Of a stretch of 46,626 nucleotides of DNA, positions 3,196 through 29,108 are shown piece after piece. This stretch comes from Spirochaetota bacterium (GTDB lineage: Bacteria; Spirochaetota; JAHITG01): NCBI GenBank assembly GCA_018817865.1, contig JAHITG010000292.1, positions 1-46,626 on the forward strand, written 5' to 3'. The translations under genes and the position numbers were made by a program. Positions within the stretch are counted from its first letter, which is position 1. The number at the start of each line of letters is the position of its first letter. The notes beneath the pieces are model-generated. The model saw only the letters and a program-made list of their open reading frames with translations. It did no database searches and was not told the DNA's origin.

Positions 3196-3804
3196 TTATT
3201 CCTTCCTATTCCCTTTTTTGAGTTCTTCGTTGATGAATTTGATCAATATCTTACGCCGGATCTCGGATAATTGAAACTGGATGCCATAGTTAGAAAACGA
3301 TCTGTCTTCAGGCTTTATCCAGACGATCTTTCCGGGGACATCCTCCATTAATTTTTCGTTTGGAAGCGAAAATGCCAGTTTAACCAGATCTCCTTGTTTA
3401 CGCCCTATTTTTGCTGTGACCATGGCCCCGCCTGCGCTGAGATCAGCAATAATACATTGAGTCCTGTTGATCCCTTCGAAATCATATATAGCCGCAGTTA
3501 TCTTAGCATTGATCCTCGGAAAGGAACGGTTGAATATCTTCTTTAAAGTTGTGGGACGGGAGATGTCCAGTAAATTTTCTTTATTTTGTTTAGAGTTCAG
3601 GGCTACTGATTTGAATTCATACGTTGCTTGATCATCCCAGAAGTTTATAAAGAGTATCGTATTTTTTTCAATGATAATATTATTTATAGGGATATAGATG
3701 GTGATACATTCCGGAGTTATTTTTTGGATCAGGGCCTGGAGTTTTTCACCATTCAGGATCTTATCGGAATAGATAACAATGCCCTGTTGAGTCTTTAATC
3801 CCAT
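3196..3804 (-). CDS. PilZ domain (c-di-GMP receptor-type) protein with YcgR-like N-terminal half
   Basis: Both PilZ signatures are present: RSFPR (RxxxR) followed by DLSAGG (DxSxxG). The C-terminal beta-barrel-like segment reads GKIVWIKPE...YGIQF. Confidence 0.8.
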   Translation of the reverse strand: MGLKTQQGIVIYSDKILNGEKLQALIQKITPECITIYIPINNIIIEKNTILFINFWDDQATYEFKSVALNSKQNKENLLDISRPTTLKKIFNRSFPRINAKITAAIYDFEGINRTQCIIADLSAGGAMVTAKIGRKQGDLVKLAFSLPNEKLMEDVPGKIVWIKPEDRSFSNYGIQFQLSEIRRKILIKFINEELKKGNRKE

Positions 3805-5403: not shown

Positions 5404-8400
5404 ATGACAGTTTATAAAAGAATTTTCAGTTTTATGGGAATAATATGGATTTTGTTGCTTTTATCTTCTTCAGTTTTTTCCCAGGAAGAGCACAATAAAT
5501 ATTTTCAAGCCGGTTTGCAGAATTACCAGAATAAAAAGTATGATGCAGCTATTAGGGCGTATTCCATGGCACTTCAGTTTGAAAAGGACGATCCCCGGAT
5601 CTATATCAACCTGGCTGATGCCTGTCTGAAATACATCCATTCAATGAAATTGAATTATAAGAGGAATTCAGCTCTTATTAAAAAACAATTCGACATGGCT
5701 GATGCCTGTTTGAAGATGGGAGAGCATAAGATAATACTATATGAATCAGGAACATCTACAGCTATCGGAAAGAAGATAAACACGGGTTTGTTAAGAACCA
5801 GATCTAAGACTTTAAAACAGTCGATGGTTTCATTGAAACGAGAAATGAAAGATGTTATAGATGAAAAGAAGGAACCTACGGTCATTGCTGTATCTGTTCC
5901 GGAAAAAAAGGAGCAGACAGGTCCTGAAATGCATCAAGAAAAGAAAGATCAGGCCATTACCAATAAAAGTAATTTTCAAAAAAGAGTTATAGGTATTACT
6001 CGGAATAAGGAGGCAAAAGATGATAACCGTCAAAAGGCCATCATGCAATCACAGTTTGATCTTCTGATCGCAAGTAATGAACGATTATATGATGAAAATA
6101 GAAGATATCAGGATCGACTTCAAGCTATTCAAGAGCAGATCGCTCATTTGAACGAGGAAATTTCAAATAGAGATGCTGCTCTTCATCCGGGTCCGTCACA
6201 AGAGATGACATCTGAAGAGTTTAAAGTGAAGAATGAGGCAATGCAATTACAGATACATGATCTTGAGATCAACATTGAGAATCAGAAAAAAGCATATGAA
6301 GATGAGATCAAACGGATGGAAGGGAGTAATCAGAGTTTGAGTAATTATCTTTCACATAAGATCTTGTTATTAAAAGAAGAAGTAGAAGACAGGAAGAAGT
6401 ATTACGCTTTAGAGCATCAGAAGCTTTTCAAGAATGAGCAAAAAGTGATCATGAATGATAATGATTATCAGAAAAAAATAAATGACCTGCAGGCAAAGTT
6501 ATCTTATCAGGAGAAGATGTATTGGGACCATACACAGCAGTTAGAACGAAATATTGAGGAGATCAGTAATGAGTCCCGGCTGGTAATAGAAAATTTTCAG
6601 AATGAATTGCATTCTCAAAAGAAGTCTTTTGAGCAACAACTGGCAAAAAATCAGGAAGGATCACAAAAAATGAATGATCAGTATCAACAGTCTATTAGTA
6701 ATTTAAATGAAAAGTTTAATAATCAGGAAATGATCCTATTAAATAGAGTTGTAGAGATGAGTAACCAGATGCAGAGGCAGACTGCAGGATTGAAGAAGGG
6801 TAATAATGATCAGAAAACCTTTTATGAACGAAAGCTTAAAAAGTTGAAAGAGATCCATTATGATGATAAGAATAAGTTACAGATTTTATCAGGAGAATTG
6901 GAAAAAAGAATACAGGAGCAAAAAAAAGGGTATTCTAAAAAAATTGATGAAAAAGAAGAGAAGTATGATTCATTGATCAAGCAGCAGGAAAAAGAGATTG
7001 AAAAATTACAGGAAGAAGCAGAAAATCTTGAAGAAGAGAAAAAAATGATCACAGAAAAAGCCGATGAAGAGCGGGAGCTGTTCCAGAAGAACAAGAAGAA
7101 GTATAATGAGATCAGTGAAATGAATAAAGATCTTTTTCAGGAGAGTCTTCAATATCAGATAAAAATTATTAATTTAGAAAAAGACCTTTCTGAGTTCAGA
7201 CAAAGGAGTGCAGTAGTTCAGGAATATAACAGTGGATTGGAAGGGGAGAACCAGGTCCTTAAGAAAGAGAGCTTGAAATATTCTGAAGAGAAAGAAGAGT
7301 TAGAGAAAAAATTAAAGACAACCGAGTCGCTTTATTATGATCAGCTCACAAAGAAGAATCTGCAGATCAGTACACTTGGATCGGAATATGAAGAGAAGTT
7401 GAAAAAACTCGCGGATGAACATGAAAAAGAGATCTCATTATATAAAAAGAGGGATGGGAATAATATTATTACCCTTTCCCGATATGAGAAAGAAGTTAAC
7501 AAATTAAAGCAGGAACTAAGTGATGTAAAAACATCGCTAAAAGGGGAGAAGAAGCAAATTCAGATCACAATAAAGCGTTATAAGAAGTTAAAGACAAAAA
7601 ACACAGATCAACTCAGGAAGTTACAGCAGCTAAGTGAAGCTCTGAAAGCAGAAGAGAAGAAGAACACGGATATTGTGGAACAGCTGGCACAATATGATAA
7701 AGAGAACAGGGAGCTTGATCAGAAATATAATAATAAAAGTGAAAAAGAAAAAGAGCTTCTTAAATATCAACAGAGGAATATGATTAGATTACAAGAAAAG
7801 GATCTGAAGATCGAACAGCTGAAAAATAATATCATGGAATTAAATAATAAGAATTTAACTCTGCAAAAAGATATTGATCTCTATTTAAACCAGGACCACG
7901 GCCATAAGATAGAAACATTAAAGGTTGAACTGGCAGGCATGAGGGGTCGATACGAGGAACTGCAGAAGGAAGCCGCAGTATTAAAGGCCTTCACAGCACA
8001 AAAGGCAAAAAATTATCGTAAAATGATCATTCAAAATGAAGAACAGAGTAAGAAAATATCCGGTTATAGTGAAAAGATCAAAGAATTGTTCTCAGATAAT
8101 CGGCTATTAAAACATGATGTGCTTCTGGTGAATAAAGAGATCAGACAGTTGAAGATGAACTCCCGCTCCGGAGATGGTCTTCAGGATAGTAAGAAACAAA
8201 AGATCACGCAGGATCCTGATGAGAATGAAAATGAAAATGCGATCGAAAAAAAGGAAGTCTTTCTGTTAAAAGATTCCGGTGGGAATGAAGTAGTTAAAGT
8301 TCCGATACTTTGTTATCATTCGTTTGATACTAAGGGTCCGTATTCTGTCTCTGGAGAACAGTTCCGAAAACAGATGGAATACCTGCATAAAAATAATTAT

Positions 8401-8979
8401 AATGTGATCAGCCTGGATGATGTGGTCCTCCATATAAAATATAAGATACCTTTTAAAGGAAAAGTATGTGCCATCACTTTTGATGACGGTTACAGGTCTG
8501 TTTATGATACTGCTTTTCCCATATTAAAAAAATATGGCTTTTCGGCAACTTTATTTTTATATACGAACGGATTTATTAATATTTACCCGGGGGCTTTAAG
8601 CTGGGATCAGATCAGGGAAATGATGAAACATAACATTACACCTCAGTCACATTCCCACAGCCATCCATGGCTTCATAAACGAAAAAAAGGGGAGCAGTAT
8701 AAGTTATACCTCGAAAGAGTAAAATGGGAGCTGGAGGCTTCAAAAGTGCTTCTCGAGAGCAAACTCCAAACATCCATAGGCTATTTTGCTTTTCCTTTTG
8801 GCGGATATAGTAAAGATGTTATAAAACTGGCACAAAAAGCCGGATATAAAGCTCTTTTTAATGTTGATATGGGTATCCCTAAAATTACAGATGATAAATT
8901 TAATTTAAAGAGGATCACGATATGCAGTGATTATAGTATGCGGATATTTAAAAAATTGTTAAAGCAGGGTTCGTTTTAA
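5404..8979 (+). CDS. 1191-aa fusion: signal peptide + TPR-like segment + ~900-aa K/E/Q-rich coiled coil + C-terminal NodB-type polysaccharide deacetylase
   Basis: The RBS is TAAGGAGG. The N-terminus reads MTVYKRIFSFMGIIWILLLLSSSVFS. There is a long heptad-like K/E/Q/L-rich middle region. The C-terminus has VPILCYHSF, ITFDDGYRS, SHSHSHPW and FAFPFGGYS, which are the deacetylase metal and catalytic motifs. Confidence 0.8.
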   Translation: MTVYKRIFSFMGIIWILLLLSSSVFSQEEHNKYFQAGLQNYQNKKYDAAIRAYSMALQFEKDDPRIYINLADACLKYIHSMKLNYKRNSALIKKQFDMADACLKMGEHKIILYESGTSTAIGKKINTGLLRTRSKTLKQSMVSLKREMKDVIDEKKEPTVIAVSVPEKKEQTGPEMHQEKKDQAITNKSNFQKRVIGITRNKEAKDDNRQKAIMQSQFDLLIASNERLYDENRRYQDRLQAIQEQIAHLNEEISNRDAALHPGPSQEMTSEEFKVKNEAMQLQIHDLEINIENQKKAYEDEIKRMEGSNQSLSNYLSHKILLLKEEVEDRKKYYALEHQKLFKNEQKVIMNDNDYQKKINDLQAKLSYQEKMYWDHTQQLERNIEEISNESRLVIENFQNELHSQKKSFEQQLAKNQEGSQKMNDQYQQSISNLNEKFNNQEMILLNRVVEMSNQMQRQTAGLKKGNNDQKTFYERKLKKLKEIHYDDKNKLQILSGELEKRIQEQKKGYSKKIDEKEEKYDSLIKQQEKEIEKLQEEAENLEEEKKMITEKADEERELFQKNKKKYNEISEMNKDLFQESLQYQIKIINLEKDLSEFRQRSAVVQEYNSGLEGENQVLKKESLKYSEEKEELEKKLKTTESLYYDQLTKKNLQISTLGSEYEEKLKKLADEHEKEISLYKKRDGNNIITLSRYEKEVNKLKQELSDVKTSLKGEKKQIQITIKRYKKLKTKNTDQLRKLQQLSEALKAEEKKNTDIVEQLAQYDKENRELDQKYNNKSEKEKELLKYQQRNMIRLQEKDLKIEQLKNNIMELNNKNLTLQKDIDLYLNQDHGHKIETLKVELAGMRGRYEELQKEAAVLKAFTAQKAKNYRKMIIQNEEQSKKISGYSEKIKELFSDNRLLKHDVLLVNKEIRQLKMNSRSGDGLQDSKKQKITQDPDENENENAIEKKEVFLLKDSGGNEVVKVPILCYHSFDTKGPYSVSGEQFRKQMEYLHKNNYNVISLDDVVLHIKYKIPFKGKVCAITFDDGYRSVYDTAFPILKKYGFSATLFLYTNGFINIYPGALSWDQIREMMKHNITPQSHSHSHPWLHKRKKGEQYKLYLERVKWELEASKVLLESKLQTSIGYFAFPFGGYSKDVIKLAQKAGYKALFNVDMGIPKITDDKFNLKRITICSDYSMRIFKKLLKQGSF

Positions 8980-9855: not shown

Positions 9856-10488
9856 ATGGAATTAATTTTAATATTCAGCGGAGCATTTATCGTGGGTCTC
9901 TCCGGTGCTCTGATGCCGGGGCCATTGATGACGATCACGATCTCACACTCAGTGAAAAGAGGCTTTATTGCCGGACCGCTGGTTATTCTGGGACATATGA
10001 TCCTGGAGATAAGCCTTTTGATTGCGATCGTTCTTGGTTTTAAAAATGTTATCTCTGCACCGCTGGCAATGAAAGTCGTCTTTATTGCAGGTGGAGCGAT
10101 CCTTATCGCACTGGGGATAGACCTGATGATCAATCATCGCAAAAGTACTGTTCCGACAGGAACGACAGAAAAATCCGCATTAAAAAAAGTTTTTTCCCAC
10201 CCGATCATCAGCGGAATAGTGGTCAGCCTGTCCAATCCTTACTGGACGATCTGGTGGGTCACGATCGGGCTTGGTTATGTTATAAAAGCGTTGAAATATG
10301 GATTTTTAGGGATCACCCTCTTCTTTTCAGGCCATATTCTTTCAGATCTGATATGGTACAGTTTTATCTCTTATACATTCAGCAGAGGAAAGAAGTTTTT
10401 TCATGATAGGACCTACCATAGTATTATCTTTATCTGCGGGATTTTTCTGATCTTTTTTGGTTTATGGTTTTTGTATAGCGGTCTATAA
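9856..10488 (+). CDS. LysE/RhtB-family amino-acid exporter
   Basis: The N-terminus MELILIFSGAFIVGLSGALMPGPLM carries the LysE-type PGP motif, and there are about 6 hydrophobic helices. The ATG at 9856 is preferred over 9850 on spacing from AAGG at 9845-9848. Confidence 0.7.
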   Translation: MELILIFSGAFIVGLSGALMPGPLMTITISHSVKRGFIAGPLVILGHMILEISLLIAIVLGFKNVISAPLAMKVVFIAGGAILIALGIDLMINHRKSTVPTGTTEKSALKKVFSHPIISGIVVSLSNPYWTIWWVTIGLGYVIKALKYGFLGITLFFSGHILSDLIWYSFISYTFSRGKKFFHDRTYHSIIFICGIFLIFFGLWFLYSGL

Positions 10489-10512
10489 GAAATAAAAGTA
10501 TAAGGAGTGAAC

Positions 10513-11031
10513 ATGTCCGTTATTTATAAGGGTAAGATCATTACGGTAAAAAATGAAGAGGTCACTTTTCCGGATGGGCATTCATCCATGTATGAATTTG
10601 TTCTTCACAGGGGAGCGGTTGCTATTGTTCCTTTGATAGAAAAAAACAGGGTGCTTCTGGTAAAACAATATCGCCCGGTGATCAAGAGACCAATATGGGA
10701 ATTACCTGCCGGCCTGATCGACGAGGGGGAAACACCATTCCATGCTGCAAAAAGAGAGCTGAAGGAGGAGACGGGTTTTATTGCCGGAAAACTGATAAAA
10801 GTCGGGGCAGCGTTCTCTTCTCCCGGATTTACTGATGAAAAGACGATCATATTTTTTGCAAAGGACCTGAAAAAGACGAAGCCAAATCTAGACCCGGATG
10901 AAAAGATCCTTACAAGGGTTTTTTCGATCCCGGAGCTGCTGGAGATGATCGAGAAAAAAAAGCTTTCAGATGCCAAGACCATTATGGGTATCCTTCAGGT
11001 ATATACTTATTACAGGCATTTGATAAAATAA
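10513..11031 (+). CDS. NUDIX hydrolase, ADP-ribose pyrophosphatase-like
   Basis: It has a perfect Nudix box, GLIDEGETPFHAAKRELKEETGF (Gx5Ex7REUxEExGU). AAGGAG lies at 10501-10506 ahead of the ATG at 10513. Confidence 0.8.
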   Translation: MSVIYKGKIITVKNEEVTFPDGHSSMYEFVLHRGAVAIVPLIEKNRVLLVKQYRPVIKRPIWELPAGLIDEGETPFHAAKRELKEETGFIAGKLIKVGAAFSSPGFTDEKTIIFFAKDLKKTKPNLDPDEKILTRVFSIPELLEMIEKKKLSDAKTIMGILQVYTYYRHLIK

Positions 11032-11121
11032 AGCGATTGTTTTCAGACGGATCAAATAGTTTTGACATTTTAAAACAGTTCATTATTTTGAAAATGATAG
11101 CCTTTCACATGGAGGATAAAG

Positions 11122-11673
11122 ATGAAAAAAGTATTATTATTTATTTTAGTAGGATTGGTTCTGTTGTTCGGTTTTTTCCTGGTCTATTCGGGACTCTTTA
11201 CAAAAGTGGTGATCAGCGAAAAGATGACGGGTCCCTATCAGCTGGTATATGAAAGATATACAGGGGATTATAAAGAGACAGGAAAAGTTATGGATAAGAT
11301 CTATTACGCGTTAAAAAAGGATATGAAGGTCGAGACGTTTAAAGGATTCGGAATATATTATGATGATCCACGGGAAAAGAAAAAAGAGGAATTAAAGAGT
11401 GATGTGGGAATTATTCTGGAAAAAAAAGATTATAAAAAGATTCCGCTGATCAAAAAAAAGTATAGTGTTAAAAAAATCTCTAAAGTTAAAAGTATTGTTG
11501 CTGAATTTCCGTTCCGAACGGAATTTTCTGTTTTTATCGGTATCATGAAAGTGTATCCGGTTTTACAATCATATATTCTACAGAATAAATACAGGAATAC
11601 TCCGGTCATGGAGATCTATGATGTCCCGCAAAAGAAGATCATATATGTGGCACCGGTGTTAAAGAAAAAATAG
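11122..11673 (+). CDS. Membrane-anchored GyrI-like (SOUL/AraC-effector-binding fold) protein
   Basis: It has an N-terminal TM helix, then GPYQLVYERYTGDYKETGKVMDKIY...GFGIYYDDPREKKKEELKSDVG, which is typical of GyrI-like domains. The RBS is GGAGGA. Confidence 0.55.
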   Translation: MKKVLLFILVGLVLLFGFFLVYSGLFTKVVISEKMTGPYQLVYERYTGDYKETGKVMDKIYYALKKDMKVETFKGFGIYYDDPREKKKEELKSDVGIILEKKDYKKIPLIKKKYSVKKISKVKSIVAEFPFRTEFSVFIGIMKVYPVLQSYILQNKYRNTPVMEIYDVPQKKIIYVAPVLKKK

Positions 11674-12373: not shown

Positions 12374-12401
12374 TTGACTAATAGGAAAAATATGTTATAT
12401 T
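12374..12401 (+). promoter_or_regulatory. Sigma70-type promoter TTGACT-N16-TATATT for the fimbria-like operon
   Basis: The -35 is TTGACT at 12374-12379 and the -10 is TATATT at 12396-12401, preceded by TGT (extended -10-like). The hexamers and spacing are identical to three other sites in the window. Confidence 0.5.
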
Positions 12402-12537
12402 ATATTATGAAAGCGATTTAGGGAAAGCGATATCCCAATATTAAATAGGATAGGGGGCAGAATTTTTTTTGCTTCATCAGTTAAAGCGTTTTCGCAAAAT
12501 CGTTTAAATAACAAATTTAATTAAGGAGGAGGTTATT

Positions 12538-13101
12538 ATGAAGAAATTATTAGTATTAACCTTAACCCTGGCAATGGTAGCCGGTTTCACTACCATGGCA
12601 AAATCTGCTACTCAAGATGATATTTTTCTTAATATCACGATCGTGAATTCCGGATTGAGTATCAGAAGTGATTTCCCGGATGTTAACTGGGGAGTTCCTT
12701 TAGGTGTCTTCACTATTTCAGGCCCCGATTATAAAGGAACTATTGTAAATGACGGTTCAGACAATGCTGACCTGTCCGTACAGTGTATTACCACCAACTG
12801 GACAGCTTCTACTACAACTACTCCTGCTGCTAATGCATTTGTTTTACAGGGTATCTTCTGTGTCTATGATGAGACATTAGCTGATGCTAATTTCGCTAAT
12901 GAAGATATTGTCACGGCCACATCTACAGCCTGCAGTGCAACTGCATATGCCAAGAACGGTGGTGATGCCATAAGGAATGGCGTTAATGTTCCTCCGGGAC
13001 AGATATTAAGTATGCGGTTCAGATTTCAGCCGCCAACAGGTGCCAGTGTTGGAGATCAGGAAACTGTTACAGTACGAGTTTCTGCTGTTACGACCCCATA
13101 G
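12538..13101 (+). CDS. Small secreted T/S/A/N/G/V-rich beta-type protein, candidate major fibre/pilin-like subunit (187 aa)
   Basis: It has a very strong SD (TTAAGGAGGAGG) and the Sec signal MKKLLVLTLTLAMVAGFTTMAKSA. It has no enzyme motif. Its composition and alternating-hydrophobic strands (IFLNITIVNSGLSI, ETVTVRVSAV) resemble fimbrial subunits. The function is an inference. Confidence 0.45.
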   Translation: MKKLLVLTLTLAMVAGFTTMAKSATQDDIFLNITIVNSGLSIRSDFPDVNWGVPLGVFTISGPDYKGTIVNDGSDNADLSVQCITTNWTASTTTTPAANAFVLQGIFCVYDETLADANFANEDIVTATSTACSATAYAKNGGDAIRNGVNVPPGQILSMRFRFQPPTGASVGDQETVTVRVSAVTTP

Positions 13102-13118
13102 TATTTTTCAATACAATT

Positions 13119-13162
13119 CTTATATCAATGTCCGCCCGAAAGGAACCGGACATTGATATAAG
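13119..13162 (+). terminator. Hairpin 1 after subunit gene: 16-bp perfect stem, 12-nt loop
   Basis: CTTATATCAATGTCCG (13119-13134) pairs with CGGACATTGATATAAG (13147-13162). There is no clean U-tract, so this could be an attenuator, RNA stabiliser or processing site rather than a strict terminator. Confidence 0.5.
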
Positions 13163-13164
13163 GT

Positions 13165-13212
13165 TGTCTGTAAAATGTAAACATTCTTTATGTAGTTTAC
13201 ATTTTACAGACA
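13165..13212 (+). terminator. Hairpin 2 after subunit gene: 16-bp perfect stem (extendable to 18), 12-nt loop
   Basis: TCTGTAAAATGTAAAC (13167-13182) pairs with GTTTACATTTTACAGA (13195-13210). The 10-mer TCTGTAAAAT also occurs at 12351-12360, just upstream of the operon promoter. Confidence 0.5.
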
Positions 13213-13247
13213 GCGAATAGCAACATTTTTAAATCAGGGGAAAAATT

Positions 13248-14168
13248 ATGACAGGGAAAAAGTTCAAGCAGTCTTCTGTAATATTTATTGCGGCTATTAT
13301 GATCATCTTATGGGGAAATCCCTCTAATAGCTATTCCGGCGGTTTGAAAACCTCTTTTGCAGAGGTTCTTCTGGAGAACCTTCATATCGGGAAAAGTTAT
13401 AACATTGGAAAGATCGCTAATTTTCCGATAGAAGTTTTTAACACATCCCCAAAAAGAATTCAGCTTACCATTAAGCCGGTAATGCCGGATAAGGTCAAAT
13501 CCGGATTTGAGCCTATTCCTGATCTGGGATGGATCACATTATCAAAGACGGATTTTATCCTGGACCCGGACGGATCAGCTAAAAGTGATATTATTATTAC
13601 GATCCCTGATAATAAAAAGTACCTTGGCGGAAAATACGAAGTAAATATCCTTTCTTCCGGCTCTAAACTCGGAAGAAAAGGCATGTTCGGATTTGAAGCG
13701 GCCCTGCGCAGCCGATTGCTCTTTACGGTTTACAAAGATAAAATTGATGATACTGGAGTTTTAGATAAACAGGTTAATTTAAATTTTGATGTATTGCCGT
13801 TAAAATCCGTTGTCTCAAATATTATAACTGGTGTGCGGACTGACCTGGCAGAGAAGGGCGTAATACTCAGTATCCGGAATAACAATACAGACTCATTTGA
13901 ATATGAAATAGAAAGCCTTCCGATCAAGGATACAGTCAGCAGTATTCCGGATGATTATATTCCCTGCCCGGACCCGCAACTGTTAAGTTTCAGCGATGTG
14001 AATATCAAGGTGGGCCCTAAACAGACAAAATATGTAAAGATGTACCTTGATTTTCCTGATAAAGACGATTACCGGAATAAAAAATATATGTTTATTGTCT
14101 CCATGAGGGTCAGGAATAAAAGTATCACCGGGAACCGCTATATACGGGTCTATGTTCAGACAGATTAA
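13248..14168 (+). CDS. Secreted protein made of two tandem copies of a ~140-aa beta-sandwich-like unit (306 aa)
   Basis: It has a signal/anchor (SSVIFIAAIMIILWG). The two halves share an internal duplication: FEPIPDLGW...ITIPDNKKYLGGKYEVNI versus DYIPCPDPQ...LDFPDKDDYRNKKYMFIV. I recognise no family name for it. Confidence 0.6.
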   Translation: MTGKKFKQSSVIFIAAIMIILWGNPSNSYSGGLKTSFAEVLLENLHIGKSYNIGKIANFPIEVFNTSPKRIQLTIKPVMPDKVKSGFEPIPDLGWITLSKTDFILDPDGSAKSDIIITIPDNKKYLGGKYEVNILSSGSKLGRKGMFGFEAALRSRLLFTVYKDKIDDTGVLDKQVNLNFDVLPLKSVVSNIITGVRTDLAEKGVILSIRNNNTDSFEYEIESLPIKDTVSSIPDDYIPCPDPQLLSFSDVNIKVGPKQTKYVKMYLDFPDKDDYRNKKYMFIVSMRVRNKSITGNRYIRVYVQTD

Positions 14169-14196
14169 ATAATTAAGTATTTGGAAGATGATTTAT

Positions 14197-15006
14197 ATGA
14201 AAAGATCATATCAAATAGGATTGTTGGGCGTTATCGTGCTCCTGTTGAATATTTCTTCTTCTTTTGCCCGGATCAAAGTTACGCCAGCTGTTCAGCAGAT
14301 GGTACTGACCGCAGGAGAGGAGAGAGAGGTTTTTTTTGAGATCATGAATTCGGGACAGCAGGACCTGAAGATCACAATTGAACCGGAGGATTGGGGACAG
14401 ACTCAGGATCTAAAAGATATTACATGGACTAGATGGCTGGATCTCGACACACGGGGATTTCAATTAAAAGCCGGAGAGAAAAAGAGGATCTCATGCAGGG
14501 TCCATTTACCATCGGATATTACCCGGGAAGTGAATGCCATGGTATATTTTTCTTGTGAACTTCCAAGAAAAAACATAAGATTGAAGACCCGTGTGGGTGT
14601 TTCTCTTTTTGCCGGAAGAAAGGGGAATGAAAAAAAGAATATTGAAATTGAAAGTATAAAGGTCAGTAAATCTTCCGGCCTGAATCCTGCCTGTTATTTT
14701 GATATTACCCTTAAAAACAACGGGAATACTCATATTATACCACAGGGATATTTAATTCTCTCCAAACCGGATAATACCAGGGTCGCCTATCTCCCTTTAA
14801 GCAACATGGAGCCGGTAATAGCTGATGAGAAGAAAGTGTACCGGATCACCTGTAAGGAGAGTACCTTTAACGGAAATTATAAAGGAAAGATGATCATTAC
14901 GTATAAGGGGTTTCCTGAAAGAGCGGAATTTAAAAAAGTAAAAGAATTTTCATTTTTTATCAGCAGAAAAGAGGAAAAAAGAGGAAAGGCTTATTTTAAG
15001 GAATGA
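14197..15006 (+). CDS. Secreted two-domain Ig/beta-sandwich-like protein, periplasmic chaperone-like in pattern (269 aa)
   Basis: The signal is MKRSYQIGLLGVIVLLLNISSSFA. RIKVTPAVQQMVLTAGEEREVFFEIMNSGQQDLKITIEPEDW resembles the first strands of PapD-type chaperones, and a second half (IESIKVSK...FDITLKNNGNTHIIPQGYL) looks like a second sandwich. This is a pattern-level inference only. Confidence 0.5.
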   Translation: MKRSYQIGLLGVIVLLLNISSSFARIKVTPAVQQMVLTAGEEREVFFEIMNSGQQDLKITIEPEDWGQTQDLKDITWTRWLDLDTRGFQLKAGEKKRISCRVHLPSDITREVNAMVYFSCELPRKNIRLKTRVGVSLFAGRKGNEKKNIEIESIKVSKSSGLNPACYFDITLKNNGNTHIIPQGYLILSKPDNTRVAYLPLSNMEPVIADEKKVYRITCKESTFNGNYKGKMIITYKGFPERAEFKKVKEFSFFISRKEEKRGKAYFKE

Positions 15007-15008
15007 TC

Positions 15009-16244
15009 ATGAAAAAGATCAGATTAATTAAAAGAGGATCGTCTATAGCTTTCATCATAAGCGTGCTTATTCTTATCCTGCTGCCTTTTTATATTCTTTT
15101 TGCTGATTATTCATTATTTGTTGAGGTTAGAAATGTCAGTGATAACAACCTTGTCACGAATGTCTCTTTCAATACCAATAATGTTACGGATGATGACAAG
15201 CGGTTCATCACCTCTCCTCAGTATGTTACTGTTCATTATTCCAATGAATCGACCAATGCAGCATGGGGTATCAGGATCTACACTTATAACACGAATTATA
15301 CGGGAACGGCTCCTTATGCCGGATTGATAAGCTGTCCTGTTCCTGACAGCAGGCTTGACCTGTTATGGAAGATCTTTACTTCGGTTCAACCCGGCGGTGT
15401 TCCCTGCTCCAATGATATTGCGTGGGGATATATCAAGGATCGTCGTGATAATGACTGGACCCAGGCCCCTGAAAGTTTTGATCTGATCCGGGGCACGCAG
15501 TTACAGGGAGAATTAGCCTCATATCCGGTTGCCGGAAGGACGGTTGTAAGTCCTGTCCCATTGTATCTCTATTTAGGAGTGAACTGCAGTAATCCTCCAT
15601 CCGGGACTAATAATTATGGAACAACCCTCTATATGGATATCTATCATGTACCGGCTTATATTCCTTCATTTCGAATTACTGAGATCGTTCCTCTGCAGGA
15701 TTTTAATATTAATAAGGATTTTACCCTCGCGATCACCGGTGAAGCCTTTCAGGAGGGAGCTGAAGTAAAATTAAGAAAAAGCGGCCAATCTGATATAAAT
15801 GCAACTGAAGTAGTTGTAACACCGGATAAGATATTAGCCGATTTTGACCTGACAAAAGCTTTTAAAACAGGAGCATGGGACCTTATTGTTAAGAATCCGG
15901 ATAATGAAACCGTGGTTCTGCCGGAGGGATTTTTAATCCGGGGATTTGATATGACCGGATATAAACTGATCCCGGTAAACAATCTTTTTAATCCCGCGCG
16001 CGGAGAGAAGATGTCCGTAAAATGGAGCATTGAAAAGGAAGAGAAGGTAATGCTTGAGATCTATAATGTAAAGGGAGAGATCGTAAAAACATTTTACAAC
16101 AATGAGCCTGTTTTACCCGGTGTATATCAGAATGACTGGTATGGGAATAATAATGGCAATAACCGGGTGGGAAGCGGGATCTATTTTATAAAGATGAGTG
16201 CAGGGGCATTTAATGATATTAAGAAAGTGGTGGTTGTAAAATAG
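15009..16244 (+). CDS. Surface protein with T9SS-type C-terminal sorting domain (411 aa)
   Basis: The track start at 15003 overlaps the upstream stop (ATGA). The ATG at 15009 has better spacing from AAGGA. The C-terminus KMSVKWSIEKEEKVMLEIYNVKGEIVKTFY...GSGIYFIKMSAGAFNDIKKVVVVK matches the Por_Secre_tail/FlgD-Ig-like CTD pattern. Confidence 0.7.
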   Translation: MKKIRLIKRGSSIAFIISVLILILLPFYILFADYSLFVEVRNVSDNNLVTNVSFNTNNVTDDDKRFITSPQYVTVHYSNESTNAAWGIRIYTYNTNYTGTAPYAGLISCPVPDSRLDLLWKIFTSVQPGGVPCSNDIAWGYIKDRRDNDWTQAPESFDLIRGTQLQGELASYPVAGRTVVSPVPLYLYLGVNCSNPPSGTNNYGTTLYMDIYHVPAYIPSFRITEIVPLQDFNINKDFTLAITGEAFQEGAEVKLRKSGQSDINATEVVVTPDKILADFDLTKAFKTGAWDLIVKNPDNETVVLPEGFLIRGFDMTGYKLIPVNNLFNPARGEKMSVKWSIEKEEKVMLEIYNVKGEIVKTFYNNEPVLPGVYQNDWYGNNNGNNRVGSGIYFIKMSAGAFNDIKKVVVVK

Positions 16245-16265
16245 GATCAAGGAGATGATGATGTT

Positions 16266-17573
16266 ATGAGATCAATTATATTTATATTAATATTTTCAAT
16301 ATTAATGAGCCTGTCCGGCAATATGTACGGTGATAATACACGTGTCTCTACAAGAGGAGCAGGGATCGTTATGATGGCTCTGGAACCACGGCCGATGAGC
16401 ATGGGAGGAGCGTTTACCGCTGTGTCTGATGATATCCATGCTCTTGTTTATAATCCGGCCGGGATAGGGCTGATCAGAGATCTTTTAGGATCAATATCCT
16501 ATCAAAAAGGGATCGAAGATATGCATTACGGTTCAGCCTCTTTAGTTTATCCAATAGGAAGACAGAGTGCTTTAGGGCTTAATTTTGGTTTTTTTCATCA
16601 GGGATTTTTTGATCTGTATCATCAGGAAGGAACTATTGAGCGCGGTTCTTTAGGGAACAGCTATAAACTGGGGTTAACCTACGGGATCCTTTTTAAGGAT
16701 AGTGACATTTCATTAGGTGCAACTTTAAAAATGATCAACAGTACATTATATACGTATTCCGCTTCCACCGGTGCTGTTGATCTGGGTCTGTTATATCATC
16801 CGTTATCAGCAGATTCAAAGAAAAACCGGTTTTCGTTTGGAATAGCTGTTTTAAATCTGGGTCCCGGTCTGAAATATATTGAAGAGGAAGACCCATTACC
16901 AACCGCATATAAATTGGGAATAGCCTATGCCTGTCATTTTAAAGCTGGAAAGACTCCTTTTAGACTGCTCTTTGCAAATGATATTATAAAGGATGATCAG
17001 TATGAAGGGCTCGGAGTGAATACAGGCATTGAGTTTAAATACCGTGATATTCTAATGGTCCGTGCGGGATATCAATTCAGGGGAGGGCTGGATCTTGATG
17101 ATGATAACGGATTTAATACGGGAATGGGTATCAATTACAGTGATCTTCAGTTTGATTACAGTTTTAAACTATCAAGCAGTGAATTGAATTCCACTTCTCA
17201 TTGTTTTTCTGTTTCATACAGGTTTTCATCTTCCGGGGAGAGAAGAAATAAAAAAAGTTCGCTCAGCTTAAAAAGATCCCTCGGCGAAGAACCTGAAGTG
17301 GAGGAAAAGAAGGTGGAGGATAAAGTAAAGACCATTAAATATTCCGATATACCCCTGTATAATAAAATAATTCTGGGTGTATCAAAAGGGCCCAGTAATT
17401 CAGGGAATAATTATAAGATACAGTATTCTACAAAAGAGACTCCGGACCAGAGCCCTGATTCAGAGGATTATAAAGGGAATGTGTTCGATGAGACCAGGGT
17501 GAAATGGGTTCGCTGGGTAGAGAAGAATAAAAACACTAATAAACCGGTATACTATAAAATTAGTATTGAATGA
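16266..17573 (+). CDS. PorV/PorQ-family outer-membrane beta-barrel with ~110-aa charged C-terminal extension
   Basis: The family signature is RPMSMGGAFTAVSDDIHALVYNPAGIGLI. Alternating beta-strand segments follow, ending in FSVSYRF. The tail SSGERRNKKSS...YYKISIE is of unknown type. Confidence 0.7.
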   Translation: MRSIIFILIFSILMSLSGNMYGDNTRVSTRGAGIVMMALEPRPMSMGGAFTAVSDDIHALVYNPAGIGLIRDLLGSISYQKGIEDMHYGSASLVYPIGRQSALGLNFGFFHQGFFDLYHQEGTIERGSLGNSYKLGLTYGILFKDSDISLGATLKMINSTLYTYSASTGAVDLGLLYHPLSADSKKNRFSFGIAVLNLGPGLKYIEEEDPLPTAYKLGIAYACHFKAGKTPFRLLFANDIIKDDQYEGLGVNTGIEFKYRDILMVRAGYQFRGGLDLDDDNGFNTGMGINYSDLQFDYSFKLSSSELNSTSHCFSVSYRFSSSGERRNKKSSLSLKRSLGEEPEVEEKKVEDKVKTIKYSDIPLYNKIILGVSKGPSNSGNNYKIQYSTKETPDQSPDSEDYKGNVFDETRVKWVRWVEKNKNTNKPVYYKISIE

Positions 17574-20327: not shown

Positions 20328-21983
20328 ATGAGAAGGATCTTATTCATTATAATAATTATTTTTTTAGCTTCAATTTCTTTATCTGCTGAGCTGTATACGG
20401 TCTGGACACAGCGTATAAATAGTCCGGGGTCCGAAGATGACAGCGGATACGGGATCGATGTGGATGATCTCGGTAATGCGTATGTGACCGGAAGAAAGCA
20501 TAACGGGCTGAATTTTGATTATTTTACGATAAAATATGACCCGGATGGAAATACGGTCTGGTCACAGGTTTATGATAACGGCCAGAGAGATGATGGCTAT
20601 TATGCCCGGATACGGTCATCCTATCTTTATATTACAGGGGCAAGTGATAATGGCGCTGATTTTGATTTTTGTACTGTGGTATATGACCTGAACGGGAACA
20701 GCACATTTACACAGAGGTTTAACAGTGGCGCGGCTGATTTCGGCCATGCTGTAACAGCGGATGATTCCGGTGCTATTTATGTAGCCGGTCCGAGTAATAA
20801 CTGGAACTATTTTTTAATTAAATATAACAGTGATGGAAGTACGAACTGGACCCGGTCCGGACCTGCAGGAAGGCCGTTCGGAATTGTATATGATAATACC
20901 GGATATGTATATGTGACAGGGTTCAGGGACGTCGGCCCTAATGTGGATTATTACACTGTGAAATACAGTACCAATGGAACAACAATATGGACACAGCAGT
21001 ATGACAGCCAGGCCGCTACTGATGATGCAGCGCATGATATTGTACTGGACAGCATTGGAAATGTTTATATAACAGGGTATAAGCTGAACAGTGATTTTTA
21101 TACTATAAAACTTGACTCTCTCGGGAATACGGTCTGGACTCAGGGATTTGACGGGGGAGGGATCGATTACGGCAGAGGCATTGATATCGGTCCGTTAGGA
21201 TATGTTTATGTCGGGGGATTCAAGCACAATGGTCTTAATTATGATTATTTTATTATAAAATATGATCAGAATGGCAATACGATCTGGACTCAAGGATATA
21301 ACGGCGGGAGTGATGACAGGATTGAAAGAATTGCGGTGGATAATAAAGGATTTGTTTATGCTACAGGATATAAAGATAATGGCGCGGATGATGATTTTTT
21401 TACTATTAAATATCTTCAGCCTCCTTATCCCACAGTACCCTCTTCTCTTTCTGCCTCTTTCATCTCGAAAAATGCTGCAACGATCAGCTGGCAGGATATG
21501 ACGATCAATGAAGAAGGATTCAAGATATACAGAAGCAGTGACAATCTTATCTTTAACCTGATAGGAACAGTTACAGCAGGCAGTACTTCTTTTCCTGATA
21601 ATACATTGGAAGAGGGATCATACTGGTACAGGATTGGAGCAACCAACAGGGCCGGCGAGATTACATCAATAACTTATAAATATACAGCCGGAGAGGCCTT
21701 TATCTCCACCACTCGTACAGGTGTTTATCCCAATTATTTTCAGATCGGACATGACCATGAAATAAAGATAGTCATAGCTGAGGCAGGATATGCCCGGATC
21801 AGGATATACAATATTGCAGATTCTCTTGTTAAGGATTATCCGGAACAATATTATCAGGCGGGAGCATATTCAGTATGGGATGGAAAAGGAGGAGTCGGAC
21901 AGGCTCTGGGCGCAGGTCTCTATTTTGTCGTGATAAAAGGGGAAAATGTAAATACCATATGTAAAGTGATCCTGAAAAGGTAG
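20328..21983 (+). CDS. SBBP-type beta-propeller repeat protein + FN3-like domain + T9SS-type CTD
   Basis: It has repeats such as DYFTIKYDPDGNTVWSQVYD, DYYTVKYSTNGTTIWTQQYD and DYFIIKYDQNGNTIWTQGYN. The FN3-like segment is ATISWQDMTINEEGFKIYRS. The CTD reads ARIRIYNIADSLVKDY...GAGLYFVVIKGENVNTICKVILKR. Confidence 0.8.
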   Translation: MRRILFIIIIIFLASISLSAELYTVWTQRINSPGSEDDSGYGIDVDDLGNAYVTGRKHNGLNFDYFTIKYDPDGNTVWSQVYDNGQRDDGYYARIRSSYLYITGASDNGADFDFCTVVYDLNGNSTFTQRFNSGAADFGHAVTADDSGAIYVAGPSNNWNYFLIKYNSDGSTNWTRSGPAGRPFGIVYDNTGYVYVTGFRDVGPNVDYYTVKYSTNGTTIWTQQYDSQAATDDAAHDIVLDSIGNVYITGYKLNSDFYTIKLDSLGNTVWTQGFDGGGIDYGRGIDIGPLGYVYVGGFKHNGLNYDYFIIKYDQNGNTIWTQGYNGGSDDRIERIAVDNKGFVYATGYKDNGADDDFFTIKYLQPPYPTVPSSLSASFISKNAATISWQDMTINEEGFKIYRSSDNLIFNLIGTVTAGSTSFPDNTLEEGSYWYRIGATNRAGEITSITYKYTAGEAFISTTRTGVYPNYFQIGHDHEIKIVIAEAGYARIRIYNIADSLVKDYPEQYYQAGAYSVWDGKGGVGQALGAGLYFVVIKGENVNTICKVILKR

Positions 21984-22569: not shown

Positions 22570-22783
22570 TAGGGAGAGGCCCGCACTTTATTCGTACTTG
22601 CATTTTATATTAGACAGTATTGTATTCTTATAGTTCAATTTAAATTATTTAATATTTATATTGCTTGTTTATGATAAAAAAAAGCCATATATCTTCAAAA
22701 TATTTTATTAAATATTCTATCCGCTTTTTACGGCGATCATTTTTCCCATATTTTATTTTTAATTCAATTGTGTGAGGTCTATC

Positions 22784-25700
22784 ATGAAAAAGCTATTATT
22801 GATAATATTGATTTTATCTTTTCCGGTCGCAGATGCAAGTTCCGCAATTATCTATTCCAATAATTTTGAATCGGATGACGGGGGCCTGATACAGATCGAT
22901 TGTATCAATTACAGCTGGGAGTGGGGGATCCCCAAATATGTTGGTCCTTCCAATGTTCCTTCGGGACAGCGATGCTGGGGAACCATAATTGAAGGGAATT
23001 ACGGCAGTTCCACAACGAACAGGGAGTACCTGGTTCTGACTAATGTTGATCTGACTTCGGTCTCCTATGCAGGGCTGGAATTCTGGCATTACTATAAATT
23101 TGATGATATGATGACCGATGATGCGGGCCGGGTGGAAGTATCGACCAATAGCGGTACCACCTGGTCTAATCTGGGGGATTATCCCTACGAGTACTCTCAA
23201 AGTTGGGTCATGGCTTTTAATGGTCCCGGTTATGCGCGTAATGAGGGGACGAATTGGCAGCAGGCTGCATTTGACCTGACCTCGTATGCCGGACAGAATA
23301 TCTGGATTCGATTCCGTTTCGAATCTGATTCATGGAATAATAACCATCCCGGATGGTATATAGATGATCTTGTGATCAAAGATATTCCCGTACCGATCGC
23401 CGGTACAGGGACCTCATCCAACATGCCTGTCAGTGTCTATAATAACAGCAGTAACGCCATTACATTTTATTATAAAGCGGAAAAAGGTATCTATAGCGGA
23501 AAAGTTTCCCTCGAGATCCCGGCAGGCTGGTCTGCTCCTCAGGACAGTAATGGTGCTTTAGAGGGGTATGTTCAGATCCAGTCCGGAACCGGTTCACCTG
23601 TTATTGCGCTAGACCCTGATATTGTTTTACGAACTATCACGGTCCAGATAACGAACATGAAACCTGGAGATGACCTGCGGATCATTTACGGGGCAGGAGC
23701 TGTGGGAGCCGTGGCTCCGTCTTCATACGGGACCTATAGTTTTACCATGCAATCCGGTAATATACTGGAAGGCATGGTGGACCTTGATGAATCACCCTGG
23801 GTCGCTGTTCAGCCTTTGATCGTACCGCCTTATTTCGAAAATTTTGAATCCGGTGTTGGCGGGCTTTATGCCACGGGTGAGAAGGCTCAGTGGGAGTATG
23901 GTACTCCATCCGGTGTTGGCCCTTCATCAGCACACAGCGGCAGTTCCTGCTGGGCCACTAAAATCTCAAGCTATTATGATATTAATTTCTGGAATCCGGA
24001 AAACCTGTATCTGCCACCCATTGACCTGACAGGGATCACCACCAATGTCTATATCAGTTTTTGGCACTGGTTTGAATTCTATTATGACAGGAACATGGGG
24101 CATGATGGATCTGCTATCTTTGCATCCACAAATGGCGGTACGAATTACTTTATCCTGGAAGCTCATTTAGGTACCAGGTATAATGATACATCCGATATGA
24201 TGCCACCATTCGGAATGGGAGGGACCTCACCTTATTGCTGGTCTTTAAAGAATTCCGGTTGGGAGCAGGTCTATGTGGATTTGACATCATTTACTAATAA
24301 GGTGGTTAATCTCTATTTTGCCTTTAAAGCAGGAAATTGGCAGTTCCCCAATTTTGCCGGTTATTATCTGGATGATATTGAAGTGATCGCCTCTACTCCA
24401 CCCGTTGCAGGATCAGGCCAGGGTTCTATCCAGCCTGCTGCGACTTATATCTCCTCAACTAATTATTATAAATTGAAATATACATCCGATACAGTGATCT
24501 ATAATGGAACTGTAACCGTTGATATTCCGGGCGGATGGACACCTCCACAGATGGCAATTCCGGCCAATCCTGGATATGTGTATATTGTTTCGACCAATTC
24601 TGCTGTAAAAATCAATAAGATCCCGGGAGTTGGGGGGAATACTATAACAATAAATATTACCAATATGCCGGCAGGAATGGATTTTGATATATGCTACAGC
24701 AATGCAGTGGCTCAAAACACCACGGGTCCGGCGCAATTCATTACACGATCAATGAGGCAGGGTGAAGTATTGACGCCAATAAATAAAACTCCTGAGGTCA
24801 GGGTCATGAACTTAATTTCATCTTTCCCCTGGTTCAGGGATTTTGAAGGTAATGACGGCAATCTCTCTACAGTAGGGAATCTCACTCCTTTCTGGGAGTG
24901 GGGTGTGCCCGGAGTCGGCCCAACAGGAGCTTATTCCGGATCAAGGTGCTGGGGAACCCTGCTTAATAGTACTCTCGATCCTGATTATCAGAATTACAGC
25001 CTGTATACCCCATTCTTCAATTTCAGTAATATTACAAATGCCATCATTGATTTTCAGTATTTTGCTGATCTTCAGGGATCCGGTTCTTTTGGTGCCCATT
25101 TTATGATCTCTACTAATAAGGGACAGACCTTTGAAGTCTTTGGTAAATATCCGACTGACTATGATGAGCAGTGGTTTTATTCTCCACCCCCCTATACTAA
25201 AAGTTATCCCGGGTGGGCTGATTCCACAACAGCATGGGAGCAGAAGATAATAGATCTTTCTTCCTTGTCCGGGAAGATCTTGCAGATGAGATTCAGGTTT
25301 GTAAATAGAGGGTGGGAACCGAACCATGCGGGATTTTATATTGATGATCTGTATGTAAAGAGAGATCGGCCGCCTATTGCCGGATCAGGAACAGCAACGG
25401 TTAATCCCAGTGTAACAGCTCCCAGTACCTCTGCTGATTATGCCTTTTTATATTTATCTGAAAAGAATTTTTATGATGGAAGTGTGACCTTTGAAATACC
25501 AAATAACTGGACAGCTCCTCAGAAGATATTTCCGGCTAATCCGGGATATATTAAGATCATATCCGTCTTATCCAATGCAAAAGTGAATTATGATCTGAAT
25601 ATTATCGGGGCAGGGCCTTGGATCGTAACGGTAACAGTGACCAATATCCCTGCAGAGGGCGGGTTCACTCTGGCCTACAGCAATGCTGTTTCACCGGCGC

Positions 25701-29092: not shown

Positions 29093-29108
29093 AGGAGGAT
29101 CAGGAATT

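Follow-up and report, generated by a model that had tools for sequence, protein, structure and literature searches.

Here we describe a cassette of five tightly linked genes, P1 to P5, in a 46,626-nt contig from a Spirochaetota bacterium (JAHITG010000292.1 of GenBank assembly GCA_018817865.1, positions 1 to 46,626; hereafter, the window). The source is a metagenome-assembled genome (MAG) labeled "Spirochaetes bacterium" at NCBI, where the locus tags of the window run from KKH98_08920 onwards. The cassette is real and conserved in relatives. P1 is a small secreted protein with a predicted pilin-like β-sandwich, P2 and P3 are predicted tandem immunoglobulin (Ig)-like proteins, P4 ends in a C-terminal domain (CTD) resembling those of type IX secretion system (T9SS) cargo, and P5 is an outer-membrane barrel of the PorV/PorQ family. 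On the basis of their gene content, folds, and genomic associations, we suggest, with middling confidence, that a diderm bacterium uses them for display and assembly at its surface, in a system with four kinds of part. At its center, the P1 domain would work as a docking or polymerizing module, because relatives carry the same domain at the C terminus of large secreted enzymes and lectins.

Conservation of the cassette and folds of P1 to P3

The L090 contig has P1-P2-P3-P4-P5 in the same order as the window, at 37-48% identity, followed by genes for Mann_GBD and SBBP proteins and a GH44 enzyme. L088 and L089 carry an extra gene for a 207-aa mannan-binding module between P2 and P3 (L088 11614-12237), and in L091 and L092 the P1-P2 pair is followed directly by a GH113 gene whose product is 54% identical to that of the window (L091 8677-10055). 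These closer relatives (L088-L092) came from an exhaustive HMMER search. A 79.5-kb Joint Genome Institute (JGI) contig, L004, encodes in succession P1-like, P2-like, P1-like, P2-like, P3-like, P4-like (N-domain plus CTD), and PorV-like proteins at 23-33% identity. The five-gene form is also present in L004, L090, and L088, the last contig ending within the P5 gene, and a version without a separate P3 occurs in L009, L015, L064, and L081. An earlier sequence-only reading had cast the stretch as a fimbria-like operon and looked to conservation of its gene order in relatives; that order is indeed conserved in L004, L090, and L088/L089, at 23-48% identity, which rules out a chance gene neighborhood.

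Scanning JGI metagenomes with an alignment of P2 retrieved 195 relatives, and local profile searches of P2 neighborhoods covered 80 loci out of these. Two further layouts emerged. In type A, a large protein that has a P1-like domain at its end is followed by small P1, then P2, then a CTD protein of very small size; type B has a very small CTD protein, then a PorV-like barrel and P2, but no P1. In one type B locus (L049 4021-7869; mini CHU_C-type CTD protein, PorV-like barrel with tetratricopeptide repeats [TPR], and P2), three response-regulator genes precede the set. P2 has flanks of at least 3.5 kb in both directions in 15 loci; on the strand of P2, these loci encode a CTD protein in 14 cases, P1 in 7, a PorV-like barrel in 8, and none of the three in 1. 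The CTD flag used in this count is a profile seeded with the P4 N-domain that drifted to generic CTD detection, and Pfam confirmed eight examples. Since 14 of the 15 well-flanked loci have a CTD protein, P2 and the CTD protein are the constant core of the system. A nearby barrel is missing from about half of the P2 loci, most of those with P1 among them. Across the loci, the cassette is linked to glycan-active genes, namely, those for GH113, mannan-binding modules, GH44, and Glycoamylase.

P1 retrieved no significant match in Pfam, NCBIfam, or PDB in sequence and profile searches run with the single sequence and with its family. A word-indexed search of 5.8 billion proteins returned one homologue of P1, three non-self homologues of P2, and none of P3; it missed the second P2 copy on L004 and is thus insensitive. 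A profile run exhaustively against 1.84 billion representatives, in contrast, recovered a P1 family of 135 cluster representatives at E ≤ 1e-3, which no Pfam or NCBIfam model covers. The AlphaFold2 (AF2) model of P1, computed from a 76-sequence alignment of this family, is a confident β-sandwich (pLDDT, 86.6; pTM, 0.78) in which the first mature, N-terminal strand reaches a pLDDT of just 54-73. Foldseek searches of PDB with this model gave top matches that are almost all donor-strand-complemented filament subunits: FimA of three species (including self-complemented monomers), AbpA of archaeal bundling pili, the CS20 pilin, and a Sulfolobus thread subunit, with further matches to FimG, the pilin domain of PapG, and CanA/Hyper2. 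The Foldseek probability is 0.92-0.99 for the pilin matches within the top 11 (0.99 for AbpA, 7ueg) and 0.2-0.8 at lower ranks (thread subunit 7pnb, FimG, PapG, and CanA), and the best E value is 6e-4. The fold check on the subunit of the sequence-only reading thus points to donor-strand pilins; at template modeling (TM) scores of just 0.32-0.39, the resemblance is best treated as a consistent lead, with fold identity unproven.

The P1 domain stands alone in 92 of the 135 representatives (≤230 aa); the other 43 are larger (239-1430 aa), and in 40 of them no more than 12 residues separate the end of the domain from the C terminus. The N-terminal parts of the large proteins include Peptidase_S8, Peptidase_C25, Peptidase_C10 with inhibitor, LamG, DUF2341, SBBP propellers, and F5/8-C with SLH, and the match to P1 mostly starts past its first strand (median profile position, 35 of 190). 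The window itself encodes just the small form and no large P1-domain protein. Among the matches of the deep search, a 753-aa protein (P0011) combines three P1-like stretches (the best at 436-517) with a T9SS type A CTD in one chain and is a natural fusion of two modules otherwise found on separate proteins.

A further feature of P1 is its expression context. The two stem-loops between P1 and P2 jointly fold at -55.1 kcal/mol (z = -9.6), and strong stem-loops lie 3' of the P1 gene in every relative examined (L001, L004, L088/L089, L090, and L091), with no conservation of their sequence; the layout of a subunit gene followed by hairpins, remarked upon in the sequence-only reading, is thus a lasting trait. 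They are likely to act as a partial terminator or mRNA stabilizer that raises the ratio of P1 to its partners. Together with the strong Shine-Dalgarno sequence of P1, the conserved hairpins fit a component that is produced in excess.

For P2, an internal duplication had been proposed from the sequence. BLASTP aligns the two halves with just an E value of 0.003 over 48 aa; the AF2 model (pLDDT, 74.6) supports the duplication, since its two β-sandwiches (33-161 and 180-305) share the same strand order. Both copies of an IPD..KY.GKKY motif are conserved over 47 homologues. Foldseek recovered 337 matches at E ≤ 1e-3, the best being tandem ASH/MSP-domain proteins of the PapD-like superfamily (about 1e-11). 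Matches to pilus chaperones included Caf1M (6e-8), with YadV and FimC up to 4e-7 (TM score on target, 0.40-0.45), and the WxLIP of Enterococcus faecium (9i1y) was matched at 2e-7. At the sequence level, neither P2 nor P3 has a significant match in Pfam, NCBIfam, or PDB. The PDB family profiles gave non-significant MSP/VAP matches for the C-domain of P2 alone; Pfam and NCBIfam scans of P1 to P3 gave nothing beyond a weak Ig-like background (e.g., NPCBM_assoc, DUF5723, and choice_anch_T); and a Pfam scan of the cassette proteins found no match to PapD_N or PapD_C at E ≤ 1. Pfam fn3_5 and FixG_C are matched by 20-23 of the 47 P2 homologues. In L004, one of the two P2 paralogues (10001-11134) bears C-terminal KDDK[TA][VA]AV repeats that the other P2 proteins lack.

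P3 is restricted to the clade of the window plus L004, with orthologues in L090, L088/L089, and L004. Comparison of its four-sequence alignment with the P2 family by hhalign (94.8%; E = 5e-8) aligned the core of the N-domain. The P3 consensus gives a sub-threshold match to Pfam WxLIP_PGBD (DUF916; E = 3.4e-4, 21 bits versus a cutoff of 27.3), and so does that of P2 (E = 0.013); a PDB sequence search with the P3 consensus did not bring up 9i1y. Direct reading detects no C-terminal transmembrane helix in either protein. These comparisons indicate that P2 is a tandem PapD-like Ig protein, resembling FimC and Caf1M at the level of its modeled fold, and that P3 is its paralogue. The sequence-only reading had given the PapD-like role to the 269-aa protein, P3; the chaperone likeness is found in the model of P2, and P3 is tied to it as a paralogue by the profile comparison.

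C-terminal domains, barrels, and a strand shared with P1

In P4, a signal peptide and a conserved N-terminal strand are followed by an unassigned domain of ~180 aa, a middle stretch of ~100 aa, and a T9SS type A-like CTD. Its orthologues in L090 and L088 are 43-48% identical, that in L004 is 32% identical over the N-terminal domain, and the orthologues conserve an L.VEVRNVS strand directly after the signal peptide; the middle stretch gives weak matches only and is missing from the L004 orthologue. The CTD scores just below the cutoffs of FlgD_ig (25.9 versus 27), Por_Secre_tail (20.7 versus 27), and TIGR04183 (21.5 versus 23) yet is 36-40% identical to CTDs of the very small (mini-CTD) proteins of relatives, which score 28.8-37.7 bits, above cutoffs. 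The T9SS-type CTD recognized in the sequence-only reading is hence a probable one. The PorV/PorQ-family barrel of that reading can be retained: P5 scores 162 bits with the NCBIfam model of that family (PorV_fam) against a cutoff of 90, and its L090 orthologue passes both Pfam PorP_SprF and PorV. Pfam and NCBIfam scans detected no usher-like plug or periplasmic domains in P5.

Pairs of CTD cargo and PorV-like barrels also recur independently of P1 to P3. The window itself encodes a second such pair (22772-31481, plus strand), in which an FG-GAP/InhA-MAM protein with a FlgD_ig-type CTD precedes a PorV/UPF0164-like barrel fused to TPR. A scan of genome contigs with P5 returned no cassette, just two unrelated genomes (including L002) in which a 974-aa CTD protein is followed by a PorV-like barrel. 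Bacteroidota CTD proteins encoded beside PorP/SprF-like barrels need these barrels in order to be secreted and anchored at the surface (PMC9143113, PMC12618676), and PorV itself shuttles CTD proteins (PMC5562754). Given this known pairing, its recurrence without P1 to P3, and the many barrel-free P2 loci, P5 is best read as the barrel that presumably anchors or shuttles the CTD of P4, its cognate partner, and not as an usher. No core T9SS component was found among the scanned proteins of the window, which covers 46.6 kb of the MAG. Two further genes of the window belong to the same protein classes. A 652-aa protein, translationally coupled to a 680-aa NosD/right-handed β-helix protein (34695-38692, minus strand), scores 203 bits with the PorV-like profile and also matches Pfam FlgO, which brings the PorV-like paralogues within 46 kb to three. 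A 551-aa SBBP β-propeller protein (20328-21983, plus strand) is matched by the CTD-flag profile, suggesting a T9SS-type CTD; L090 has SBBP and Mann_GBD proteins at the equivalent position, after P5.

The mini-CTD proteins offer a possible view of how the CTD and P1 are connected. In type A loci, the gene after P2 encodes a product of 150-185 residues, in which 40-70 residues lie between the signal peptide and a CTD passing Pfam Por_Secre_tail; in type B loci, the CTD passes CHU_C. Outside the CTD, the sole conserved element of the type A proteins is a strand of the form SSSISVTVxVV (e.g., SSSISVTVLVVN and GSTISVTVTVT), which resembles the first mature strand of the adjoining P1 (ANPATINVTVTI). 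When a profile of the N-terminal strand of P1 was run against 1527 non-P1 open reading frames (ORFs), 6 of 17 distinct type A mini-CTD proteins fell within the top 20, and the type B and large CTD proteins gave no score. Three large proteins encoded just downstream of P2 (L066 2003-4702, L067 1068-4802, and L025 1833-3116) lack a P1 domain and have a P1-like N-terminal strand after the signal peptide (ANPVNVTISVNIV and AANVTVRVNI). Judging by these strands, they may be further strand-donating partners.

Proposed mechanism, known systems, and competing readings

From these observations, we infer a scheme in which strand complementation, the order of events, and the length of any P1 polymer would be as follows. 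All of the products would reach the periplasm via Sec. P1, small and probably highly expressed, would present a single Ig-like, pilin-type sandwich with a loosely attached N-terminal strand. In the periplasm, P2 and P3 would bind the P1 domain and complete or shield its sandwich, keeping it competent, a role that can be likened to that of FimC on FimA and to that predicted for WxLIP on WxL. P4 would take a T9SS-like export route, the genes of which lie elsewhere, and P5 would hold it at the surface. The mature N-terminal strand of P4, or, in relatives, that of the mini "strand plus CTD" protein, could then insert into the P1 domain and so tether P1, P1 oligomers or fibers, and P1-tagged enzymes to the anchor. 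P1 might also polymerize head to tail via its own N-terminal strand, and the enzymes and lectins that end in a P1 domain would join the same structure. As to how P1 might cross the outer membrane, the most economical proposal is that it rides along with the CTD protein. The GH113/mannan-binding protein probably co-transcribed with the cassette suggests that the displayed assembly serves polysaccharide capture.

This logic has a close parallel in the csc/WxL clusters of Lactobacillales and Bacillales, to which we were led by the Foldseek match of P2 to WxLIP. In these clusters, CscB is a small WxL-only protein, CscC is a large protein that has its WxL domain at the C terminus along with binding domains, ConA-like or other, CscA/WxLIP is a two-Ig-domain protein (DUF916 plus DUF3324), and CscD is a tiny LPXTG protein with a signal peptide and 40-60 residues before its sortase anchor (PMC1534035, PMC9772566). 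They have been proposed to build cell-surface complexes for plant polysaccharide use (PMC1534035), and, in AlphaFold predictions, the WxL sandwich is completed by a strand from WxLIP (PMC10599100). The cassette shares with them a small, domain-only secreted protein and large proteins, often ConA-like/LamG, with the domain at the C terminus; in type A loci, the large protein lies directly upstream of small P1. The two-Ig-domain partner is represented by P2, which matches WxLIP by fold, and P3 matches WxLIP_PGBD below threshold. The tiny anchoring protein has its counterpart in the very short protein of relatives (signal peptide, 40-70 residues, and anchoring signal), in place of which the window has the larger P4. 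In both systems, the partner is predicted to make contact by inserting one of its strands into a sandwich that is incomplete (PMC10599100 for csc; by our proposal for the cassette), and both are linked to carbohydrate-active genes (PMC1534035 for csc).

The differences are also clear. P1 lacks W-x-L motifs, its tryptophans at 51 and 88 lying in WGV and WTA; Pfam WxL matches 1 of 42 P1 family members at the noise level (E = 0.081) and none of the consensus sequences. As judged by Pfam and motif, then, P1 does not count as a member of the WxL family. P2 has no counterpart of the C-terminal transmembrane helix that follows DUF916 and DUF3324 in WxLIP, LPXTG and sortase give way to a T9SS CTD, either alone or paired with a PorV-like barrel (there is no LPXTG in the cassette), and, the host being a diderm, peptidoglycan binding is not implied. 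Homology between the two systems is, at best, very remote. The cassette nevertheless looks like an undescribed, T9SS-anchored diderm counterpart of the WxL/Csc complexes, with which it agrees in its four-part logic. The opinion that the locus fits no known paradigm was hence too strong.

Other known systems match it in part. As in chaperone-usher pili, there is an Ig-like candidate subunit, for which FimA-type pilins are the best structural matches, and a partner predicted to have two PapD-like domains, although both likenesses have low TM scores. Large proteins that end in a pilin-like domain (compare FimH and PapG) and a subunit gene followed by hairpins are further points in common. Unlike them, it has no usher, its barrel is of the PorV/PorQ type, its proteins have no Pfam PapD_N/PapD_C or Fimbrial match, and P2 is ~60-80 residues longer than the chaperones of these pili. 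An usher was sought by Pfam among P1 to P6 and 20 further ORFs of the window of at least 120 aa, without a match. Pfam scans of these 26 ORFs likewise found no sortase, type IV, curli, or lipoprotein-pilin family, so that the absence of known pilus machinery noted from the sequence stands. With T9SS cargo and shuttle pairs (SprB-SprF; type B CTD-PorP pairs), the cassette shares a CTD protein beside a PorV/PorP-family barrel (P4-P5 and 22772-31481) and mini-CTD proteins that pass the Por_Secre_tail or CHU_C models. It departs from them in that a tie to a pilin-like domain family and PapD-like proteins is undescribed for T9SS, the mini-CTD proteins are nearly passenger-free, which is unusual, and the host is labeled Spirochaetes and lies outside Bacteroidota. 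AbpA, the Sulfolobus thread subunit, and CanA/Hyper2 of cannulae are among the Foldseek matches of P1, and in all of these the N-terminal strand completes the sandwich of a neighbor. The cassette differs from such chaperone-free donor-strand filaments, to which TasA also belongs, in its PapD-like partner and in its diderm context with a CTD anchor; Peptidase_M73/TasA has no match at E ≤ 1, and the cassette contains no signal peptidase gene. Curli, type IV, and sortase pili were set aside for want of any components, and DUF4402, SCPU, and TasA readings for want of matches. Type V (Bacteroidota FimA/Mfa1) pili were likewise rejected, there being no type V pilin family match and, by direct reading, a Sec-type signal peptide without a lipobox Cys on each of P1 to P5. 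When we searched the literature for donor-strand pili in combination with T9SS or PorV, nothing that turned up described such a system.

Several observations weigh against the display system that we favor. The TM scores of P1 against pilins (0.32-0.39) fall under the usual same-fold threshold, and the P2 model was built on four sequences and its global TM scores are low. Type B loci, which make up half of the P2 loci, have no P1 in their vicinity, and the P4 of the window has a large N-terminal domain in place of the mini-CTD layout. The similarity between the strands is short and V/T/S rich, with individual E values of 1-15, and the enrichment of the mini-CTD proteins in the strand search (hypergeometric, 2.5e-8; Mann-Whitney, 1.3e-10) is inflated in both tests by related sequences. 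Finally, P1 and P2 have no CTD and could stay in the periplasm. If so, P1 to P3 might be Ig-like binding or quality-control proteins acting on P4, or on the GH113, before export, and the likeness to pilins would reflect a generic Ig fold. The Sec signals of P1 to P3, none of which has a CTD, the low TM scores, and the fact that the steadiest companion of P2 is a CTD protein (14 of 15 loci) agree with this purely periplasmic association. We nonetheless hold it to be very improbable: the P1 domain ends proteases, lectins, and an SLH protein, which are typically extracellular, and its top matches are specifically donor-strand pilins and not random Ig domains.

The remaining alternatives concern what is assembled and how. 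A true long fimbria would be a donor-strand polymer of P1, with P2 and P3 as periplasmic chaperones and P5 replacing the usher as the assembly and export pore. It would account for the pilin-like fold of P1, the chaperone-like fold of P2, the five-gene synteny, and two traits also seen in pilin operons, a strong Shine-Dalgarno sequence and conserved hairpins that follow the gene of the subunit; the large proteins with C-terminal P1 domains would then resemble two-domain tip adhesins, in which light one may view matches that mostly begin past the first strand. The role that it gives to P5, also advanced in the sequence-only reading, is contradicted by membership of P5 in a family of shuttle and anchor barrels, by the pairing of such barrels with CTD cargo in the window and in L002 with P1 to P3 absent, by the absence of a nearby barrel from roughly every second P2 locus and from most of those with P1, and by the lack of detectable usher-like plug or periplasmic domains in P5. 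We therefore regard a long fimbria as distinctly unlikely and abandon the barrel as a substitute for the usher. At the other extreme, P1 and the P1-tagged enzymes might sit as monomers on a P2/P3-P4-P5 platform, as a short, non-polymeric equivalent of the Csc/WxL complexes that captures carbohydrate and forms no fiber. This is a tentative possibility, somewhat on the unlikely side, that draws on the four-for-four architectural match with the csc/WxL clusters (PMC1534035, PMC9772566, PMC10599100) and on the linkage to the GH113, mannan-binding-module, GH44, and Glycoamylase genes. The missing W-x-L motifs, the lack of a meaningful Pfam WxL match, and the missing transmembrane helix of P2 speak against it, and the expression signals of P1 suggest a stoichiometric excess that is more polymer-like. 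It largely overlaps with our preferred display system, differing in polymer length only.

A bolder extension, which we put forward as speculative and rather unlikely, is that the P1 domain and the mini "strand plus CTD" proteins constitute a two-part secretion and anchoring signal. The CTD protein would lend its N-terminal β-strand to the unfilled sandwich of P1, or of any enzyme with a P1 domain at its end. P2 would hold the sandwich open in the periplasm, and the complex would pass through T9SS onto the PorV-like barrel, as single units or as enzyme-tipped donor-strand fibers. If true, this would amount to a chaperone-assisted, usher-free pilus or display pathway built on type IX secretion and to a diderm sister of the WxL system that hints at its workings. 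The broader display system, if correct, would define a widespread, unannotated domain family outside Pfam and NCBIfam (135 P1 representatives and 195 P2 relatives) and would make a pilin-like docking domain the C-terminal tag of proteases, lectins, and glycan-binding proteins of uncultured diderms. It would be the first link of donor-strand-type assembly to type IX secretion anchors and would provide a structural and evolutionary handle on the csc/WxL clusters, the mechanism of which remains only predicted. It would also improve the annotation of many "hypothetical" surface proteins in polysaccharide-degrading MAGs from sediments and digesters.

Layout of the locus and neighboring genes

The features of the cassette and of the second cargo-barrel pair are collected in Table 1. 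P1 to P5 are co-directional and tightly spaced, and a sixth gene, P6, likely belongs with them. The description of the locus in the sequence-only reading, with its five tightly spaced or overlapping genes, strong Shine-Dalgarno sequence, and two hairpins, proved accurate.

Table 1. Coordinates of the cassette, its candidate expression signals, and associated genes in the window
Feature	Position	Strand	Description
Promoter candidate, sigma-70-like	12374-12401	+	TTGACT, 16-nt spacer, TATATT, TG extension; 10/12 matches
Shine-Dalgarno sequence AAGGAGGAGG	12523-12532	+	Strong; 5 nt upstream of P1 ATG
P1	12538-13101	+	187 aa; Sec-type signal peptide and one predicted pilin-like β-sandwich domain
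Stem-loop pair between P1 and P2	13119-13162 (16-bp main stem) and 13163-13214 (20-bp stem)	+	
P2	13248-14168	+	306 aa; secreted, two predicted PapD-like/ASH-type Ig domains; hallmark component of the cassette
P3	14188-15006	+	272 aa (269 aa from the MKR start used by NCBI); divergent P2 paralogue
P4	15003-16244	+	413 aa; overlaps P3 by 4 nt; T9SS type A-like CTD
P5	16266-17573	+	435 aa; PorV/PorQ-family outer-membrane barrel, charged C-terminal extension
P6	17624-20236	+	870 aa; GH113 (β-mannanase family; Pfam GH113, 4e-50); starts 50 nt past P5
FG-GAP/InhA-MAM protein	22772-29092	+	2106 aa; FlgD_ig-type CTD
PorV/UPF0164-like barrel fused to TPR	29109-31481	+	790 aa

The promoter candidate sits in the divergent intergenic region upstream of P1 and is plausible as the P1 promoter. 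The consensus elements reported in the sequence-only reading are indeed present; promoter-like sites are, however, no commoner in the region than in shuffled sequence (30 versus 23.8 ± 5.3), and so the promoter stays a candidate only.

P6 is probably a co-transcribed cargo or partner of the cassette. It carries three repeated modules of ~160 aa that are homologous to the 207-aa protein of L088/L089 (precomputed Pfam Mann_GBD_bact), and it has neither a CTD nor a P1 domain. Upstream of the cassette, the window encodes a 1191-aa protein combining TPR with a polysaccharide deacetylase domain (5404-8979, plus strand) and a PilZ-domain protein (3196-3804, minus strand), neighbors that possibly indicate an exopolysaccharide or cyclic di-GMP context.

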